Source of the DNA: a phage | DNA length: 64,000 nt | Reading direction: 5' to 3' (one strand) | Sequence record: PZ583738.1 | Shown here: piece by piece, positions 2,094 to 32,528 of the stretch | Layout of the letters: each line of letters begins with the position of its first letter | Numbering within the stretch: position 1 is the stretch's first letter | Notes under the pieces: generated by a model | The model's database searches: none | Told to the model about the DNA's origin: nothing | Seen by the model: the letters and a program-made list of their open reading frames with translations, nothing else | Translations under genes and position numbers: made by a program

Positions 2094-4349
2094 ATGCAAG
2101 TACAAAAAAGTAGTGGTGTATCTCAAGATTTTGATGGCCAGAAAATTATTAAAGTTCTTTCCTGGTCATGTGAAGGAACTAATATCGACCCGTATGAATT
2201 ATACGAAACAATCAAACCACATCTGCGCGATGGCATGACTACTCGCGATATTCAGACGGTTATCATCAAAGTATCCGCTGGGCTTATTTCGGTTGAAGAA
2301 CCAGATTACCAATATGTTGCAGCCAAAGCTACGATGTTTGCTCTGCGTAAAGATGTTTATGGCCAGTTTGAGCCACGTTCTTTTATTGACCAGATTTCTT
2401 ATTGTGTTAATGAAGGTAAATATGACCCAGAGCTGTTGTCAAGCTACTCAGCTGAAGAGATTACTTACCTGGAATCTCGTATTAAGCACGAACGCGATTT
2501 TGACCTGACTTATGCAGGCGCGATGCAGCTTAAAGAGAAATACCTGGTTAAAGATAAAACCACTGGGAAAATCTATGAGACTCCACAGTTCGCTATCATG
2601 GCCATCGGCATGGCACTGCACCAGGATGAACCAACGGACCGTCTGAAGCACATTTGCCGTTTTTATGATGCAGTATCTACGCAGCAGATTTCGTTGCCCA
2701 CACCTATCATGGCGGGCGCCAGAACACCTACCCGACAGTTCAGTTCGTGTGTGGTTATCGAAGCTGCGGACTCCCTGAAGTCAATTAATAAGACTGCTAA
2801 TTCAATCATCGAATATATCAGCAAGCGTGCAGGTATTGGTATCAACGTTGGCATGATTCGTGCTGAAGGTTCGAAAATCGGTATGGGTGAAGTCAAGCAT
2901 ACTGGTGTTATTCCGTTCTGGAAACATTTCCAAACGGCTGTTAAATCATGTTCACAAGGTGGAATCCGTGGCGGCGCTGCTACTGCTTATTATCCTATTT
3001 GGCATTTGGAAGTTGAAAATTTACTCGTTCTGAAGAACAACAAGGGCGTTGAAGAAAACCGCATCAGACATATGGACTATGGTGTCCAGCTGAATAACCT
3101 GATGATGGAACGACTGGCTAAGAATGATTACATCACTCTGTTTAGTCCACACGAAGCTGGCAGTGAATTGTATTATTCATATTTTGATAACCCGGATAAA
3201 TTCCGCGAGTTATATGAAGCCTTAGAAAAAGACCCGACTGTTCGCAAGAAACGCATCAAAGCAAAAGATGTATTTGAATTATTCATGACCGAACGTTCCG
3301 GTACAGCCCGCGTTTATCCGCAGTTCGTTGATAACGTGAATGACTACACTCCGTTCATCCGTGACAAGGCTCCGATTCGTCAATCAAACCTTTGCTGTGA
3401 AATTGCAATCCCGACCACTGATGTAAACAGCGAAGATGCTGAAATCGGATTGTGCACGCTATCAGCATTTGTTCTGGATAGTTTTGACTGGCAGGACCAA
3501 GATAAGATTAACGAGCTGGCTGAAGTTCAAGTTCGTGCTCTTGATAACCTGTTGGACTATCAGGGTTATCCGGTTAAAGAAGCTCTGAAAGCCAAAAAAC
3601 GCCGCAACCTGGGTGTTGGGGTTACTAACTATGCTGCATGGTTGGCAAGCAATTTCGCTTCCTACGCTGATGCAAACGATTTAACGCATGAACTGTTCGA
3701 GAGATTACAATATGGCCTTATCCGAGCATCAATCAAGCTCGCCAAAGAAAAAGGACCTTGCGAATATTATTCAGACACTCGTTGGGCTCGAGGCGAATTA
3801 CCTATCGACTGGTACAATAAAAAGATTGACCAAATCGCAGCTCCAAACTACGTTTGTGACTGGGCGCAGTTGCGGGAAGACCTGGTTGAACATGGCATCC
3901 GTAATAGCACATTATCAGCACTTATGCCTTGTGAGTCATCTTCCCAAGTTTCTAACAGTACAAACGGTATCGAACCTCCGCGTGGACCAGTCTCTATTAA
4001 AGAGTCAAAAGAGGGTTCCTTTAATCAAGTCGTGCCCAATATTGAGCACAATAAAGGATTGTACGATTACGCATGGGTGCTAGCTAAGCAAGGTAACAAA
4101 CCTTATCTGACCCAAGTCGCGATTATGTTGAAATGGATTTGTCAGTCAGCATCAGCCAATACATATTATGACCCGCAGAATTATCCGAAAGGAAAAGTTC
4201 CGATGTCAGTTATGCTTGACGACTTGATGTACAGTTGGTATTTTGGTCTCAAGAATTTATATTATCATAATTCTCGTGATGGTTCTGGTCAAGATGATTA
4301 CGAAATTGAAGTTCCAAAAGCAGATGATTGCTCGGCATGTAAACTGTAA
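2094..4349 (+). CDS. nrdA: aerobic ribonucleoside-diphosphate reductase large subunit
   Basis: 751-aa ORF; class Ia RNR alpha features (ATP-cone N-terminus, C-terminal CSACKL-type tail); colinear with T4 NrdA. Confidence 0.96.
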   Translation: MQVQKSSGVSQDFDGQKIIKVLSWSCEGTNIDPYELYETIKPHLRDGMTTRDIQTVIIKVSAGLISVEEPDYQYVAAKATMFALRKDVYGQFEPRSFIDQISYCVNEGKYDPELLSSYSAEEITYLESRIKHERDFDLTYAGAMQLKEKYLVKDKTTGKIYETPQFAIMAIGMALHQDEPTDRLKHICRFYDAVSTQQISLPTPIMAGARTPTRQFSSCVVIEAADSLKSINKTANSIIEYISKRAGIGINVGMIRAEGSKIGMGEVKHTGVIPFWKHFQTAVKSCSQGGIRGGAATAYYPIWHLEVENLLVLKNNKGVEENRIRHMDYGVQLNNLMMERLAKNDYITLFSPHEAGSELYYSYFDNPDKFRELYEALEKDPTVRKKRIKAKDVFELFMTERSGTARVYPQFVDNVNDYTPFIRDKAPIRQSNLCCEIAIPTTDVNSEDAEIGLCTLSAFVLDSFDWQDQDKINELAEVQVRALDNLLDYQGYPVKEALKAKKRRNLGVGVTNYAAWLASNFASYADANDLTHELFERLQYGLIRASIKLAKEKGPCEYYSDTRWARGELPIDWYNKKIDQIAAPNYVCDWAQLREDLVEHGIRNSTLSALMPCESSSQVSNSTNGIEPPRGPVSIKESKEGSFNQVVPNIEHNKGLYDYAWVLAKQGNKPYLTQVAIMLKWICQSASANTYYDPQNYPKGKVPMSVMLDDLMYSWYFGLKNLYYHNSRDGSGQDDYEIEVPKADDCSACKL

Positions 4350-27836: not shown

Positions 27837-27848
27837 TATTTATAAATA
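27837..27848. promoter_or_regulatory. overlapping divergent late promoters (palindromic TATTTATAAATA)
   Basis: Reads TATAAATA on both strands; between divergent genes 51 (minus) and 26 (plus). Confidence 0.65.
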
Positions 27849-27865: not shown

Positions 27866-28489
27866 ATGACTTATGAATTTATTGTCCAAATTAAAAATAA
27901 AACTATAAATTGTAGGGCTTTTACCTTGCGCGAATACAAAGATTTGCTTCAGGCAAAATTAGAAAAGCGTATGGAACCTGCAATAATTGAACTGCTTAAT
28001 AAATGCACTGATGCTAAAGGGTTAAACAAACAGGAAGCTGAACTGCTTCTTATTAATCTCTGGGCAAATAGTCTCGGAGCTGTTAACGTCGAGCATACAT
28101 GGGTATGTGAGTGCGGAAAGGAACAAGATATTCCTGTGACTATAAGTCGCGCAAGCATCGTGGATGAGTCTGAAGTTATTCGTGATTTCGGGGCGTTTAA
28201 AATTAAATTCCGTTATCCTGGACTGTTTGAAGATGGTGATAAAGGAAAAATGATTGCTTGTTGTATCGAATATATTATCACGGAAGGCGGTGAGCGCATC
28301 GTTGTTGATGACTTAAATGAGGCTGAAATCGAGGACCTGTACAATGCAATTACCCTCGATGATATAAATGCACTAACAGAAGAACTTCTCAAGCCGCAGG
28401 TCCAAATGGCTATTCCTATCTCTTGCGAGTGTGGAGCACATTCTGTCCATGTAATTAAGGGGCTTAAAGAATTCTTTAAGTTTATGTAA
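27866..28489 (+). CDS. 26: baseplate hub subunit gp26
   Basis: 207 aa from ATG with AAGGAG RBS (track start 27833 is TTG and would include the late promoter); divergent from gene 51. Confidence 0.85.
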   Translation: MTYEFIVQIKNKTINCRAFTLREYKDLLQAKLEKRMEPAIIELLNKCTDAKGLNKQEAELLLINLWANSLGAVNVEHTWVCECGKEQDIPVTISRASIVDESEVIRDFGAFKIKFRYPGLFEDGDKGKMIACCIEYIITEGGERIVVDDLNEAEIEDLYNAITLDDINALTEELLKPQVQMAIPISCECGAHSVHVIKGLKEFFKFM

Positions 28490-28879
28490 ATGAATATAAA
28501 CAAAATGTATAGCGATGTGTCTCCCGACTTATCTACAAGTTGGGATAAAGACGTTGCTAAAGTAACCGGGGCAAGGTCTGTTAAGAACAGTCTTTTGGGA
28601 ATAATCACCACAAGAAAAGGGTCAAGGCCTTTTATGCCTGAATTTGGATGTGATATAAGTAATCAGCTTTTTGAGAATATCACTCCATTAATCACAGATA
28701 CCATTAAACGCAACATCGTCTCCGCGGTGCGGAACTTTGAACCAAGGATAAGCAATCTGCAGGTTGCAGTTGTCCCCATGTATGATGATAACTCTATTAT
28801 CGTAACAGTTCAGTTCAGCATTGTTGATGACCCCGATACCCTCGAACAAATCAGGATTCAGCTAAGTCAAAACGGTTAA
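28490..28879 (+). CDS. 25: baseplate wedge protein gp25
   Basis: 129 aa; NSLLGIITTRKGSRPF.PEFGCD block matches T4 gp25. Confidence 0.93.
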   Translation: MNINKMYSDVSPDLSTSWDKDVAKVTGARSVKNSLLGIITTRKGSRPFMPEFGCDISNQLFENITPLITDTIKRNIVSAVRNFEPRISNLQVAVVPMYDDNSIIVTVQFSIVDDPDTLEQIRIQLSQNG

Positions 28880-28904
28880 TGCTTTAATTTTATGGCTGTA
28901 TAAT
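28880..28904 (+). promoter_or_regulatory. middle promoter for uvsY (MotA box TGCTTTA, 12-nt spacer, TATAAT) with GGTTCTAGACC extension
   Basis: T4 uvsY is a known middle gene. Confidence 0.6.
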
Positions 28905-28932
28905 GGTTCTAGACCCTTACATTGGATACATT

Positions 28933-29367
28933 ATGAAAACAGAGATTGAATATAAGTTAGAAGTCTTTCAGGATGAGTTGGATGCAGATTTAAAAATTGA
29001 TGGTACACAACTTCAATATGAAACACAAAACAACGTTTTGTTGCATAGCAAATGGTTGAGATTGTATACCAACTGCAAGAAAGAAATAATGCGTCTTGAG
29101 ATTCAGAAGAAAACTGCACTGAAAAAACGACTAGACCATTATACAGGAAGGGGTGACCCAGGGGAAGAAGTATGCATGGATGTGTACGAGAAGTCAGAAT
29201 TGAAAACAGTCATGGCCGCAGATTCAAGCGTACTGAAGATTGATACGTCAATTCAGTATTGGACACTGCTCCAGGACTTCTGTAGCGCTGCATTAGATGG
29301 TGTTAAGTCACGAAGTTTCGCACTTAAACATATGTTAGAAATAAGACAATTTGAGGCGGGCAAGTAA
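28933..29367 (+). CDS. uvsY: recombination mediator UvsY
   Basis: 144 aa from ATG at 28933; LQYE..NNV.L.SKWL...KK...R.E.QKK.ALK.RLD.Y.GRGD matches T4 UvsY; MotA-box middle promoter upstream. Confidence 0.93.
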   Translation: MKTEIEYKLEVFQDELDADLKIDGTQLQYETQNNVLLHSKWLRLYTNCKKEIMRLEIQKKTALKKRLDHYTGRGDPGEEVCMDVYEKSELKTVMAADSSVLKIDTSIQYWTLLQDFCSAALDGVKSRSFALKHMLEIRQFEAGK

Positions 29368-29600
29368 TGCGATATTCTATCGACGATGCGTTTAACCAAG
29401 ACGAAGAGTTCGAAGAAGAAATTAAGTATATGATGAAGGAATGGAAATTGAATCGTGCAGATATTCGTATCTGCGCTGACCACCCTTGTGGTGAAGATGT
29501 TATCTATGTTAAAGGTAAATTTGCAGGATACATCGATGATGCGTTCTATTCTCACAATATGGGAATAGATACTGGTATGAGATACTTTAAGGAAAATTAA
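29367..29600 (+). CDS. hypothetical protein (uvsY.-1 position)
   Basis: 77-aa Cys-containing ORF, start overlaps uvsY stop. Confidence 0.6.
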   Translation: MRYSIDDAFNQDEEFEEEIKYMMKEWKLNRADIRICADHPCGEDVIYVKGKFAGYIDDAFYSHNMGIDTGMRYFKEN

Positions 29601-29711
29601 ATGAAAAATATTAGTAAGATTCTCGACGAGATGGTTATCTCTGCAAACCGAATAACCGAAATTGTTAATGAGATGAAAGCTCGTGCTGCTATTATGAAGA
29701 GCACTAAATAG
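29601..29711 (+). CDS. hypothetical 36-aa ORF
   Basis: ATG immediately after upstream stop; below track size cut-off; weak support. Confidence 0.3.
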   Translation: MKNISKILDEMVISANRITEIVNEMKARAAIMKSTK

Positions 29712-29739
29712 ATATGTAAGTTTAACTGAGGAGACAATC

Positions 29740-29907
29740 ATGTCAGATAAGATTTGTGTTGTCTGTAAAACTCCAATCGATTCTGCATTGGTTGTGGATA
29801 CAGACCAAGGTCCGGTGCATCCGGGCGCCTGTTATAATTATGTTCAGAGTTTGCCAGTTACGGAAAATACAGAAGAGCAACTGAACGAGACCCAACTTTT
29901 AATTTAG
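29740..29907 (+). CDS. hypothetical 55-aa protein with CxxC motif (CVVCKTP ... HPGAC)
   Basis: GAGGAG RBS at good spacing; followed by hairpin/T-run terminator. Confidence 0.4.
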   Translation: MSDKICVVCKTPIDSALVVDTDQGPVHPGACYNYVQSLPVTENTEEQLNETQLLI

Positions 29908-29935
29908 CTAGTGTTGTTAACCATTTTTTGGTTTT

Positions 29936-29968
29936 GCCCCTTCCTTTTGGTTGGGGCCTTTTTATTTA
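29936..29968 (+). terminator. imperfect hairpin (GCCCC...GGGGC) plus T-run after ORF 29740
   Basis: Large loop; T5 follows. Confidence 0.45.
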
Positions 29969-30193
29969 GAAATCTTCGTCTTCGTCTTCGTCCATATCCT
30001 CAAGCTCGGCACGTTTACCGGCAAGAGCGTCACGAACACTGATATCATCGGAATCTTTCAGTTCAGCTTCTTTGCTGCGTTTCTTATAATAGCCTTCCAA
30101 CTCCTTCAGACCGTCCATGGTCTGACAGGAACCAATCTTAGACATAAAGCTTTCGATTGATGCTTCGTACATAATTTCTTCGAAGGATTTCAT
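29966..30193 (-). CDS. UvsW.1-like small acidic protein
   Basis: 75 aa with acidic C-terminal tail (DMDEDEDEDF); located downstream of uvsW as in T4, but separated from it by an HNH gene. Confidence 0.6.
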   Translation of the reverse strand: MKSFEEIMYEASIESFMSKIGSCQTMDGLKELEGYYKKRSKEAELKDSDDISVRDALAGKRAELEDMDEDEDEDF

Positions 30194-30978
30194 TATATTT
30201 CCACCTGTTTAATAAATTTATCGACCATTTTCCCATAGTGTACTTTAGGATATCCAGCTTCGACAGCGATTTTGGTAAATCCCGTTACTTTAGGTTTATT
30301 GTTATTTATCCAAAGTAAAAATAACTCGTCATATAATAGCCAATGCGGATATTTTTTGGCATGAGTCTCTTTCCAATTTTTGGAATGGTCTTCACTTCTA
30401 AAAGATTTTTTAACACCTTTATTTGCCTTTCCCGCCTTAGAACATGTCGCATAATCACCCGCCTTGACAGGAGTAAATCCTTTCATAGCTTTAGATTTTT
30501 TGTCACGCGTTTCCTGAGACTGTTTGGACCCGGTGTTTTTTGCCCAGGCCTTTTCCAAAGCTTTTAATTTCGCGGGAGTGAATCCGACTTTTCGCATGGC
30601 GTCAATATGTATTTGGAGACGTTCTGCGGACCATTCATATGAACCATGATTATTACCCATCAAAGCTTCACTAATTAAATGTGATGCCTTTTCTTTAAGC
30701 AGTGTAATGGTTCTTGAACTAACTTCTTTTAGGCGTCGACCGTTTGTCATACCAAATGCTGCGCGCCATAATTTACCACCTTGTGCTTTTGCTAAAATAA
30801 CATGAGCTAATATATGTTCACGAACTGTTAAAGCAACTAAATTATTAGGATGGTTGGAACCTCCAACCGACTTTGGTATAATATGATGTATTTCAATTCG
30901 ACAAGGAGCAGAGGTCTTTGTCCAACCCCTTGTCCTTGCATTTGAAATTAAATCATCGTAAATTTTTTGATAATTCAT
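30193..30978 (-). CDS. freestanding HNH homing endonuclease (paralog of the mobE-like gene at 4349)
   Basis: HNH motif (IHHIIPKSVGGSNHPNNLVALTVREHILAH); N-terminus MNYQKIYDDLI parallels MNYKKIYDSLI of the 4349 ORF; NUMOD3-like SQETRDKKSKAMKG; overlap-coupled between uvsW and uvsW.1. Confidence 0.85.
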   Translation of the reverse strand: MNYQKIYDDLISNARTRGWTKTSAPCRIEIHHIIPKSVGGSNHPNNLVALTVREHILAHVILAKAQGGKLWRAAFGMTNGRRLKEVSSRTITLLKEKASHLISEALMGNNHGSYEWSAERLQIHIDAMRKVGFTPAKLKALEKAWAKNTGSKQSQETRDKKSKAMKGFTPVKAGDYATCSKAGKANKGVKKSFRSEDHSKNWKETHAKKYPHWLLYDELFLLWINNNKPKVTGFTKIAVEAGYPKVHYGKMVDKFIKQVEI

Positions 30979-32474
30979 AGTTCCACATGTTTCACTACAT
31001 AGTTAAAACGTTCATCAGCATATCGTTGAATACGTTCAAGGCCGTGTTTAAGAAGATAGTTCAAATGAACATATTTCTTTTTAGCGTTTGCTGATTTAGG
31101 ACGGACCCCCATGTCGTCAACGATATCCCAAACATTTGCTTGCGATTTGGATGCGTGTTTTCGAAGTACACGACCGATTGTTTGAAGGACAATTACCTTT
31201 GATTTTACACCGTGAGCGAAAATAATATGATGGAGGTTTTTAACGGAAATCCCCGTTGAGAATACACCATATGAAGCTACAACAATAATTCCCTTTCCAT
31301 TCTCTGCCATGACCTTCAGAGCATTACGGGTTTCGGTATCAACTTCACCAGAAACATAATACACTTTCTCATGACCAGCTTCCTTAAGCATTTCAAACAT
31401 CGATTTACCGTGCTCGATATTCTTAAACATCAAAAAGACGTTTTCATCTTTTTTAGAAAGCTTGAGTGCAAGATTTGTTACCCATTTATTTCGGCGTGTA
31501 GCTTTTGTAATTACCTTGATTTCATCCTGATAAGTTTTACCTTTCATTTTAACGGTGAATTCATCAGGGTATCGAAGGAAAATACTATTTATTTTAAGGT
31601 CAGTAACCTGGCCATCTTCCATCAATTTGGATGTTGATACTGGTTTAAAGATATCACCAAACAGACCCATATATTGCATAAGGTTGGCTTTGCCATCACG
31701 GAGTGAACCTGACAGACCAAATTTAAACATGCAATTCGTAAGGCCTTCGATAACCGTCGAAATCGATTTACCGGTCGCCATATGACATTCGTCATTCATA
31801 AACTGACCGAACTGTTCAAACCATTCTTTATGTTGTTTTACAGCCGTCTGATAAGTCGATACATAAATCATCGCATCAGAATCACGTTTAGTCCCGGAAC
31901 GAATACCCAGACAAGCTGCACGAGGGAAAAGCCGATAATCAACAAAGTCATTAATCATCTGGTCAACAAGGGCAGTTGTAGGAACAAGGATAAGCACCTT
32001 GCCTTCATAGTTCTCGAGATAATATCGCGCCAGAAGCGCCTGGATGAGGCTTTTACCTGCAGACGTAGGTAAGTTCAGAATCTTTCTTCTGTTGACCAGA
32101 CCATCATATACGGCGTCAGATTGATACCAATGGGGCGTTATCTTGGTATTGCCTGAATAGATTTCTTTTGACTCGACCCATTTGTCGAATTCTTCGCGAG
32201 AGATTTCTTCTTTCTCGGTGATTTGTGGGTCAATCCAGAATGAATAACCAAACTGGTCAGCGAACTTTTTAATTTGATTAACCAAACCGTATGGTAATTT
32301 ACGATTGTAATCCAGGAGGCGGATTCGTCCGTCCCAAACTCCCTGCTTGAACTTTGGATTGAAGCGATAGTTTTCAGCTTCGAAGCTGAAGTAATCACGG
32401 AGTTCGTAGAAGATTCCATCTTCGCATTCAACATGCACGTGACTAAAATTTAGAAAGTTGATTTTAATATCCAT
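30975..32474 (-). CDS. uvsW: UvsW ATP-dependent DNA/RNA helicase
   Basis: Start set at MDIKINF to match the T4 UvsW N-terminus; SF2 helicase motifs (LPTSAGKS, DECH); TATAAATA late promoter ~30 nt upstream. Confidence 0.95.
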   Translation of the reverse strand: MDIKINFLNFSHVHVECEDGIFYELRDYFSFEAENYRFNPKFKQGVWDGRIRLLDYNRKLPYGLVNQIKKFADQFGYSFWIDPQITEKEEISREEFDKWVESKEIYSGNTKITPHWYQSDAVYDGLVNRRKILNLPTSAGKSLIQALLARYYLENYEGKVLILVPTTALVDQMINDFVDYRLFPRAACLGIRSGTKRDSDAMIYVSTYQTAVKQHKEWFEQFGQFMNDECHMATGKSISTVIEGLTNCMFKFGLSGSLRDGKANLMQYMGLFGDIFKPVSTSKLMEDGQVTDLKINSIFLRYPDEFTVKMKGKTYQDEIKVITKATRRNKWVTNLALKLSKKDENVFLMFKNIEHGKSMFEMLKEAGHEKVYYVSGEVDTETRNALKVMAENGKGIIVVASYGVFSTGISVKNLHHIIFAHGVKSKVIVLQTIGRVLRKHASKSQANVWDIVDDMGVRPKSANAKKKYVHLNYLLKHGLERIQRYADERFNYVVKHVEL

Positions 32475-32502
32475 GATGATTCCAAGGTAATAAATATATC
32501 TA

Positions 32503-32510
32503 TATTTATA
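32503..32510 (-). promoter_or_regulatory. late promoter TATAAATA for uvsW
   Basis: Exact octamer on minus strand ~30 nt upstream of uvsW ATG. Confidence 0.65.
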
Positions 32511-32528
32511 CACTAACCGAGGTTCATC

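Follow-up and report, generated by a model that had tools for sequence, protein, structure and literature searches.

The uvsY-uvsW interval

The window, that is the whole stretch of 64,000 nucleotides of phage DNA analysed here (PZ583738.1), shares 98-99% identity with Escherichia phages P479, UPEC01 and DK-13 and with Shigella phage SP18 (genus Gaprivervirus). Its gene order in the region of interest is 51, 26, 25, uvsY, uvsY.-1, orf36 and uvsY.-2, followed by the converging uvsW.1, HNH and uvsW genes (Table 1). The subject of this study is uvsY.-2, located 0.9 kb downstream of gene 25. Its product, read from the ATG at 29740, is MSDKICVVCKTPIDSALVVDTDQGPVHPGACYNYVQSLPVTENTEEQLNETQLLI. A preliminary description had singled out this 55-aa ORF for its good ribosome-binding site, its position downstream of uvsY, two cysteine motifs and a terminator behind it. 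These observations hold. GAGGAG stands 6 nt before the ATG, uvsY is identified upstream by its Pfam profile with two ORFs in between (uvsY.-1 and the 36-aa ORF), and the CVVCKTP and HPGAC motifs correspond to residues 6-12 and 27-31.

Table 1. Features of the uvsY-uvsW interval and of the uvsY.-2 product, in window coordinates
Feature	Position	Strand	Basis and remarks
uvsY, recombination mediator	28903..29367	+	First gene of the same-strand cluster; Pfam UvsY E 2.5e-50
uvsY.-1, 77 aa, function unknown	29367..29600	+	phrog_1541 E 7e-41
36-aa ORF (orf36), unannotated, MKNISKILDEMVISANRITEIVNEMKARAAIMKSTK	29601..29711	+	Between uvsY.-1 and uvsY.-2
Shine-Dalgarno GAGGAG	29728..29733	+	6 nt 5' of the uvsY.-2 ATG; read from sequence
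uvsY.-2 / DUF2685 CDS, 55 aa	29740..29907	+	ATG 29740, stop TAG 29905-29907; ORF list, Pfam, PHROG, dN/dS
Residues 1-40, predicted single-zinc treble-clef domain	29740..29859	+	Knuckle, beta-hairpin 19-26, helix 30-37
C6-V-V-C9, zinc knuckle, predicted ligands 1 and 2	29755..29766	+	C6 and C9 invariant in 88 homologues; motif in 112/112
H27-P-G-A-C31, predicted ligands 3 and 4, helix start	29818..29832	+	C31 invariant, H27 at least 90%
Residues 41-55, acidic tail, probably disordered, with E42 and terminal motif	29860..29904	+	pLDDT 53-63; E42 invariant
L48-N-E-T-Q-L-L-I55, docking-type C-terminal peptide	29881..29904	+	Position frequencies in 105 anchored members
Small A/U-rich hairpin AACCA-loop-UGGUU	29919..29933	+	RNA fold; 5' of the terminator stem
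Intrinsic terminator, stem GCCCC..GGGGC (29936-29957), then CUUUUUAUUUA	29936..29968	.	Between converging uvsY.-2 and uvsW.1
uvsW.1, 75 aa, very acidic, ends ...EDEDEDF	29966..30193	-	Converging; Pfam UvsW-1 E 4.5e-24
HNH homing endonuclease, 261 aa	30193-30978	-	Between uvsW.1 and uvsW
uvsW helicase	30975..32513	-	Converging neighbour of uvsY.-2; tblastn and ORF comparison, 40 loci; Pfam domains in related loci

In the relatives compared, the presence of uvsY.-1, of the 36-aa ORF and of homing endonucleases between or around uvsY and uvsY.-2 varies. The ATG of uvsY.-1 and the uvsY stop codon have one base in common, and the gene is missing in many relatives. The ATG of the 36-aa ORF abuts the uvsY.-1 stop (TAAATG) and is preceded by AAGGA. 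This ORF is retained in SP18 and in locus L005, which carries no uvsY.-1; it shows 86% identity in L006, and its start may be lost in L013. It matches no family in Pfam, PHROGs or NCBIfam, and its variation among relatives is insufficient to judge its coding status. At the uvsW.1-uvsW site, SP18 carries a different, shorter HNH gene (only ~59 residues, 51% alike; L001 3394-3993) and HNH genes occupy the same site in L014 and L015, while in L008 and L009 an HNH-like gene lies between uvsY and uvsY.-2 instead (about 3364-3960). The uvsY-uvsW interval is an insertion hot spot for homing endonucleases.

The ORF of uvsW starts with a GTG at 32513. Its homologues start with MDIKINF, which corresponds to an ATG near 32474, and a late-promoter box TATAAATA occurs at 32510-32503, within the N-terminal extension of the ORF. 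The true uvsW start is probably the shorter one, and the gene probably has its own late promoter. The TATAAATA pattern is found 19 times in the window, against ~4 expected by chance. Two overlapping copies on opposite strands lie at 27837-27848, between the divergent genes 51 and 26. The box nearest to uvsY.-2 is the one upstream of gene 26. The gene, which closes the uvsY transcription unit on its 3' side, does not occupy an early-gene location, and its position is consistent with co-expression with uvsY and not with host-takeover genes.

The terminator announced in the preliminary description is the GCCCC..GGGGC hairpin followed by CUUUUUAUUU, with a folding energy of -14.5 kcal/mol and a z-score of about -2.6. 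It was assigned by folding and by comparison of relatives; a simple terminator scan missed it because the loop exceeds 8 nt. The sequence that follows the hairpin on the minus strand is rich in A and not in U. In most relatives examined a GC-rich hairpin and a T-run are present 3' of the DUF2685 gene, with compensatory changes in the stem (GCCCC/GGGGC, GGCCC/GGGCC, GCCCCTC/GAGGGGC); distant lineages carry unrelated hairpins, and the hairpin is weak or missing in L004, L033, L036 and L037. A small hairpin comparable to that at 29919..29933 is present in most enterobacterial relatives. The element at 29936-29968 is the bidirectional terminator that Nolan et al. had already noted as conserved between uvsW.1 and the gene converging on it (PMC1524935). 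Rfam identified no RNA family in the region 28000-31500.

The DUF2685 family and its T4 member

The window protein matches Pfam DUF2685 (PF10886) with 101.7 bits for a cut-off of 25 (E 2e-29), residues 3-54 aligning with positions 1-54 of the 55-position model. It also matches phrog_1043 (PHROG 1043; E 2.6e-29). It is 100% identical to the VR20, CJ20 and SP18 proteins and 82% identical to T4 UvsY.-2, and shares with the latter its family, its length and its position between uvsY and uvsW. The two loci differ in these respects: in the window, uvsY and uvsY.-2 are separated by uvsY.-1 and an additional 36-aa ORF, and a homing endonuclease lies beyond uvsW.1. In the databases the ortholog is annotated as 'uvsY.2' in SP18 and as 'uvsY.-2 conserved hypothetical protein' in T4. 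The window ORF, a stand-alone 55-aa protein with C6/C9/H27/C31, a LNETQLLI tail and a place between uvsY and uvsW, is the Gaprivervirus ortholog of T4 uvsY.-2 and belongs to DUF2685.

As its family is catalogued and identical proteins have been deposited, the gene was already known: the preliminary description had correctly spotted a conserved hypothetical gene, not a new kind of element. In the literature searched, uvsY.-2 is rarely named, DUF2685 is not mentioned and neither a zinc site nor a tail motif is described. NCBIfam provides no match to the protein and BFVD returns family members only, without annotation. What is added here is the set of ligands with its His/Cys exchange, the predicted fold class, the C-terminal motif and the exclusion of UvsY and UvsW.1 as obligatory partners.

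A tblastn search with the window protein, which probably misses some divergent lineages, retrieved 1131 phage records. Their hosts include Escherichia, Klebsiella, Shigella, Acinetobacter, Aeromonas, Enterobacter, Yersinia, Salmonella and Serratia, among others. Krischvirus, Slopekvirus and a 253-kb Vibrio phage carry a DUF2685 gene, and the gene is found in every T4-like Straboviridae lineage examined. An exhaustive profile search of 1.84 billion representatives identified 76 clusters at 50% identity, essentially all of them composed of proteins of 52-66 aa.

Conservation of the frame among relatives, the check proposed in the preliminary description, was observed. The median pairwise dN/dS is 0.12 (27 distinct alleles, 35 loci) and variable columns are distributed over codon positions 1, 2 and 3 as 30, 23 and 51 of 55, a third-position bias. 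At the level of sequence comparison, the frame is shown to be under strong purifying selection. AT-rich DNA contains many short ORFs by chance alone, the list from which this one was taken is purely mechanical, and a 55-codon ORF is by itself within chance expectation. A fortuitous ORF in an intergenic spacer is nevertheless refuted by this conservation, with 1131 records, 76 divergent clusters and invariant ligands, and by a T4 phenotype that is complemented in trans (below); its probability is negligible. It is this conservation that identifies uvsY.-2 as a real gene, and it is virtually certain that its protein is made.

In T4, CRISPRi-ART knock-down at the ribosome-binding site of uvsY.-2 gave a 'Semi-Fit' phenotype, with smaller plaques and an almost unchanged plating efficiency (PMC11879866). 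The defect was rescued by expression in trans, and the authors described the gene as 'important for T4 infection', with an unknown function (PMC11879866). Together, knock-down and complementation show a modest contribution to fitness exerted at the protein level. In the same screen the score of uvsY.-2 was 1.12 (Semi-Fit), against 0.09 for uvsY and -0.10 for uvsW, both 'Not Fit' (PMC11879866). This ranking is unexpected for a mere helper of UvsY or UvsW. It is more easily reconciled with restraint than with help, or else indicates that the partner is another protein.

Not all members are recognized by the Pfam model. The clade in which a cysteine replaces the histidine of the ligand set (P0113-P0121; L042 3411-3587; Slopekvirus, Pantoea phage Phynn and metagenomic contigs) can fall below the cut-off: P0114, for example, reaches 19.6 bits for a gathering cut-off of 25. 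Pfam-based annotation therefore misses part of the family. At the other extreme, four 'DUF2685' proteins of ~100 aa (P0021, P0097, P0099 and P0104) were considered as natural fusions and rejected. Their extension after ...QLLI starts with Q and translates intergenic DNA, and they are artefacts of stop-codon read-through into the terminator region. The 126-aa P0033 is longer at its N-terminus, and no family was recognized in the added part.

Predicted zinc finger and acidic tail

The proposal of a small zinc-binding protein, also made in the preliminary description, is supported as a prediction by the alignments and by two structural models. C6, C9, C31 and E42 are invariant in 88 aligned homologues, and K10, H27 and G29 are conserved in at least 90%. 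The pattern C-x2-C-x13-20-[H/C]-x3-C is present in 112/112 members, the most frequent spacing being 17. Its third ligand is a histidine in 97 of the 112 and a cysteine in 15, the cysteine version marking a clade to which Slopekvirus and Pantoea phage Phynn belong. Such an exchange between His and Cys at position 27, with the rest of the set fixed, is the behaviour of a metal ligand.

The AlphaFold2 model obtained with the 88-sequence alignment has a mean pLDDT of 78, with values of 82-90 for residues 1-40 and 53-63 for residues 41-55. Two strands (19-21 and 24-26) precede a helix (30-37), H27 being located just before this helix and C31 in its first turn. A second run with the Cys-clade member P0114 and another alignment produced the same topology and the same weak tail. 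The low pLDDT of the tail could mean that it folds only in an oligomer. Structure searches with the model retrieved only treble-clef zinc fingers (eL24/Rlp24, YacG, LIM, C1 and MYND), none of the matches being significant. A PDB sequence search with the family profile gave nothing below E = 1. The profile of the Cys clade gave weak matches to Vps39, MYM fingers and archaeal L24e, with the ligands in register and sub-significant E values of 0.18-1.4.

On the basis of these models, residues 1-40 very probably form a zinc treble-clef fold. There is good support for the predicted class, a treble clef with a single zinc that comes nearest to the eL24/TRASH/MYM type, but not for membership in any named superfamily. 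Like eL24, TRASH, MYM and LIM-half fingers, UvsY.-2 is predicted to combine a C-x2-C knuckle, a beta-hairpin and a helix at whose start two ligands stand four residues apart; the TRASH or eL24-like pattern used for comparison was C-x2-C-x19-22-C-x3-C. Members of the Cys-for-His clade carry in addition an eL24-like 'E-P-G-T-G-F ... D-G ... C-S-x-x-C' wording.

The tail is as conserved at its end as the finger at its ligands. The linker that joins E42 to the terminal motif is acidic and of variable length, with four acidic and no basic residues at positions 42-50 of the window protein. The motif could be anchored in 105 of the 112 members and is looser in the other 7. Among the 105, successive positions are occupied by L (92), N, E or Q, E (95), T or V (93), Q or E (95), L or M (103) and L or I (101), the Q being replaced by E in 22. 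In all 105 the motif ends 0-2 residues, usually one hydrophobic residue, from the C-terminus. The last eight residues are almost invariant in phages of Escherichia, Klebsiella, Acinetobacter, Aeromonas, Vibrio and Pseudomonas, a conservation like that of the ligands. No other protein of the window was found to carry the same C-terminal motif.

The window protein includes only two basic for eight acidic residues (net charge about -6). The family median is -5.5 to -6 and nearly all members range from -4 to -9. This strongly negative charge argues against nucleic-acid binding. With its flexible acidic tail and hydrophobic tip, the acidic finger has the look of a protein-docking module and not of a nucleic-acid binder.

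SSB-type acidic C-terminal tips recruit partner enzymes, and E. coli SSB ends with ...DDDIPF. Like these tips, UvsY.-2 has an acidic segment, predicted to be flexible, and conserved hydrophobic residues at its C-terminus. The gp32 tips, likewise acidic and rich in Leu, follow L-[DN]-D-L-L-N-x-L, with ...DLDDLLNDL in T4 and ...ELNDLLNGL in Acinetobacter phage Konradin. However, UvsY.-2 has neither an OB fold nor a DNA-binding domain, and L-N-E-T-Q-L-L-I is distinct from the gp32 tip. Pfam gave no SSB or gp32 family match for DUF2685 members, whose core is a predicted 40-residue zinc finger. The likeness to gp32 tips and to YacG is functional and not evolutionary. In T4, the C-terminal region of gp32 recruits Dda via a short amphipathic helix (PMC11551737).

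The tail was also compared with beta-clamp-binding motifs and rejected as one of them. The bacterial consensus, QL[SD]LF or QLxLxL, has five or six residues, with Q first and hydrophobic residues in places 4 and 5 (or 6). The UvsY.-2 tail offers only L-L-hydrophobic after the Q, itself replaced by E in part of the family.

Candidate partners of UvsY.-2

All 40 loci that carry a DUF2685 gene place it upstream of, and convergent with, uvsW.1/uvsW. Directly upstream lies usually uvsY, and in five divergent lineages (L036, L037, L038, L040 and L042) the start of the DUF2685 gene overlaps the uvsY stop by 1 or 4 nt. The uvsY-DUF2685 pair follows genes 23/24 and not gene 25 in L037 and in Kpn35c1; in L037 the DUF2685 gene has moved together with uvsY beside these genes. 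UvsW is found in all DUF2685 genomes examined and is the basic protein of this group of neighbours (net charge +12). T4-like phages as a rule keep their gene order, however, and synteny is therefore weak evidence.

In Acinetobacter phage Konradin (NC_049479.1; L004, L045-L048), the DUF2685 gene lies directly after gene 25. The UvsY HMM, which detects the Vibrio (3e-30) and cyanophage (9e-18) proteins, found nothing in the whole Konradin genome (best E 0.57). The annotation of this phage lists no UvsX, UvsY or UvsW.1, and does list UvsW, gp32, gp59, Dda, gp41, gp46/47 and topoisomerase II. Konradin thus retains the DUF2685 gene without detectable UvsY and without UvsW.1, so that neither is an obligatory partner; UvsY was rejected as such on this ground. 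Conversely, in cyanophage S-T4 uvsY is directly followed by uvsW, and no DUF2685 gene is present. Synechococcus phages contribute none of the 1131 DUF2685 matches and 89 of the UvsY matches. UvsW can therefore work without UvsY.-2.

Konradin is also annotated with a DprA-like recombination mediator, and a swap of the recombination mediator in Acinetobacter T4-like phages is possible. In Aeromonas phage avDM1, the gene upstream of DUF2685 shows no UvsY match and a weak YqeY match (Pfam E 2e-4, below cut-off). This gene (L043 3450-3863) takes the place of uvsY as the immediate upstream neighbour. In Vibrio phage D491s a YqeY/GatB-like gene (L003 2504-2974), annotated as 'tRNA amidotransferase', separates the DUF2685 gene from uvsY (or gene 25).

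The explanation that we favour, to which we give as a whole a probability of about 0.35, is that UvsY.-2 is a zinc-stabilised adaptor whose tail docks on a DNA-metabolism partner, UvsW being the leading candidate. Zinc would only stabilise the mini-domain. UvsY.-2 would bind a partner protein by lodging the acidic tail, with its hydrophobic C-terminal end, in a groove of the latter, in the manner of the acidic tips of E. coli SSB and T4 gp32, or of the YacG tail. The partner would most likely be a basic protein of phage DNA metabolism, from the machinery for replication, recombination and repair. UvsW leads the list of single candidates on account of its constant proximity, its charge of +12 and its occurrence in all DUF2685 genomes examined; UvsY.-2 would recruit it or restrain its activity. 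These steps are not equally firm. Action by protein binding through the tail is somewhat probable. The placement of the partner in the phage replication/recombination module is tentative, and the choice of UvsW in particular is rather unlikely to be the right one. The reconstitution of recombination-dependent replication with 10 purified T4 proteins (PMC6337909) counts against this explanation.

A more specific form of the adaptor would make UvsY.-2 a regulatory subunit, so far overlooked, of the machinery for T4 recombination and replication restart. Its gp32/SSB-like tip would bind UvsW, or a different helicase or topoisomerase (Dda and gp39 are examples), and the enzyme would thereby be restrained or targeted. 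We regard this as doubtful. If true, it would explain why loss of uvsY.-2 costs more fitness in the screen than loss of uvsY or uvsW.

The main competitor looks to the host. UvsY.-2 could be a takeover or anti-defence factor whose tail mimics a C-terminal docking peptide of the host and sequesters or redirects a protein conserved in Proteobacteria; SSB-interacting enzymes, the beta clamp, RNA polymerase and proteases are examples. Action of this kind is frequent among small acidic phage proteins, the tail resembles the acidic, hydrophobic-tipped C-termini of SSB type, and the family occurs in T4-like phages of Proteobacteria and is absent from cyanophage records and from the one cyanophage locus examined. 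It has moreover been suggested that Semi-Fit genes of unknown function might be inhibitors of defence (PMC11879866). However, the presence of the gene in every Straboviridae lineage examined, at a fixed position beside core genes, is unlike that of accessory anti-defence genes, and its location in a middle/late unit is not that of the early cluster. The tail hardly varies between phages of such distant hosts as Vibrio, Acinetobacter and Escherichia, it deviates from the clamp consensus QL[SD]LF, and the fitness effect was seen in a laboratory strain. A host-directed role is on balance unlikely. A topoisomerase target appears less probable still. YacG (PDB 4TMA) is a zinc-finger inhibitor of DNA gyrase whose acidic tail docks on the enzyme and blocks it. 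A YacG-like UvsY.-2 would inhibit or regulate a type IIA topoisomerase, either host gyrase or the phage topoisomerase II gp39/gp52, its finger and acidic tail binding the GyrB-like subunit and blocking or tuning DNA binding. The two proteins are alike in being stand-alone, ~60 aa long and built (for UvsY.-2, by prediction) of one four-ligand treble-clef finger and an acidic tail, with ligands in register. However, all four YacG ligands are cysteines and its tail motif is another one, that of UvsY.-2 having no Trp. Homology to YacG was rejected (hhalign probability 2.2% over 27 columns), and the YacG family does not appear among the Pfam matches of the 88 DUF2685 members at E <= 1. We consider such a topoisomerase regulator quite improbable.

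A zinc finger that binds nucleic acids, as a regulator of transcription or translation or by contacting RNA as the eL24-type fold does in the ribosome, is very unlikely given the net charge of -4 to -9 in nearly all members and the two basic residues of the window protein; the structure and profile matches to eL24-type folds are not significant. The neighbourhood of genes 25, 26, 51 and 27 could suggest instead a morphogenetic helper for baseplate or tail assembly. The gene lies 0.9 kb downstream of gene 25, directly after it in Konradin, and is readable from the late promoter upstream of gene 26. Against this, the pair follows the capsid genes 23/24 and not baseplate genes in L037 and Kpn35c1, and the constant neighbour is uvsW, which makes an assembly function highly improbable.

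T4 is among the best-studied models of recombination-dependent replication, and uvsY.-2 is measurably useful to it. The finding is ordinary in itself; the function can be addressed by experiment. Handles for this purpose are the four predicted zinc ligands, the invariant Glu and the last eight residues, which are the expected business end. The list of possible partners is narrowed to UvsW, gp32-interacting enzymes, topoisomerase II and a conserved host protein.

The product of the converging gene uvsW.1 has a net charge of about -11, and an acidic run with a terminal Phe (...EDMDEDEDEDF) ends 21 of its 22 distinct alleles. This C-terminus is an SSB or T7 gp2.5-like tip, sharing with the SSB type an acidic run closed by Phe. 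From their charges and C-termini, both small converging genes, uvsY.-2 and uvsW.1, encode acidic proteins with hydrophobic tips beside the basic UvsW. A screen of the window for acidic, hydrophobic-tipped C-termini picked up only one other ORF, of 81 aa, at 1815-2060 on the plus strand just upstream of nrdA, with the strongly acidic C-terminus EEEYNDEMTSELPETI.
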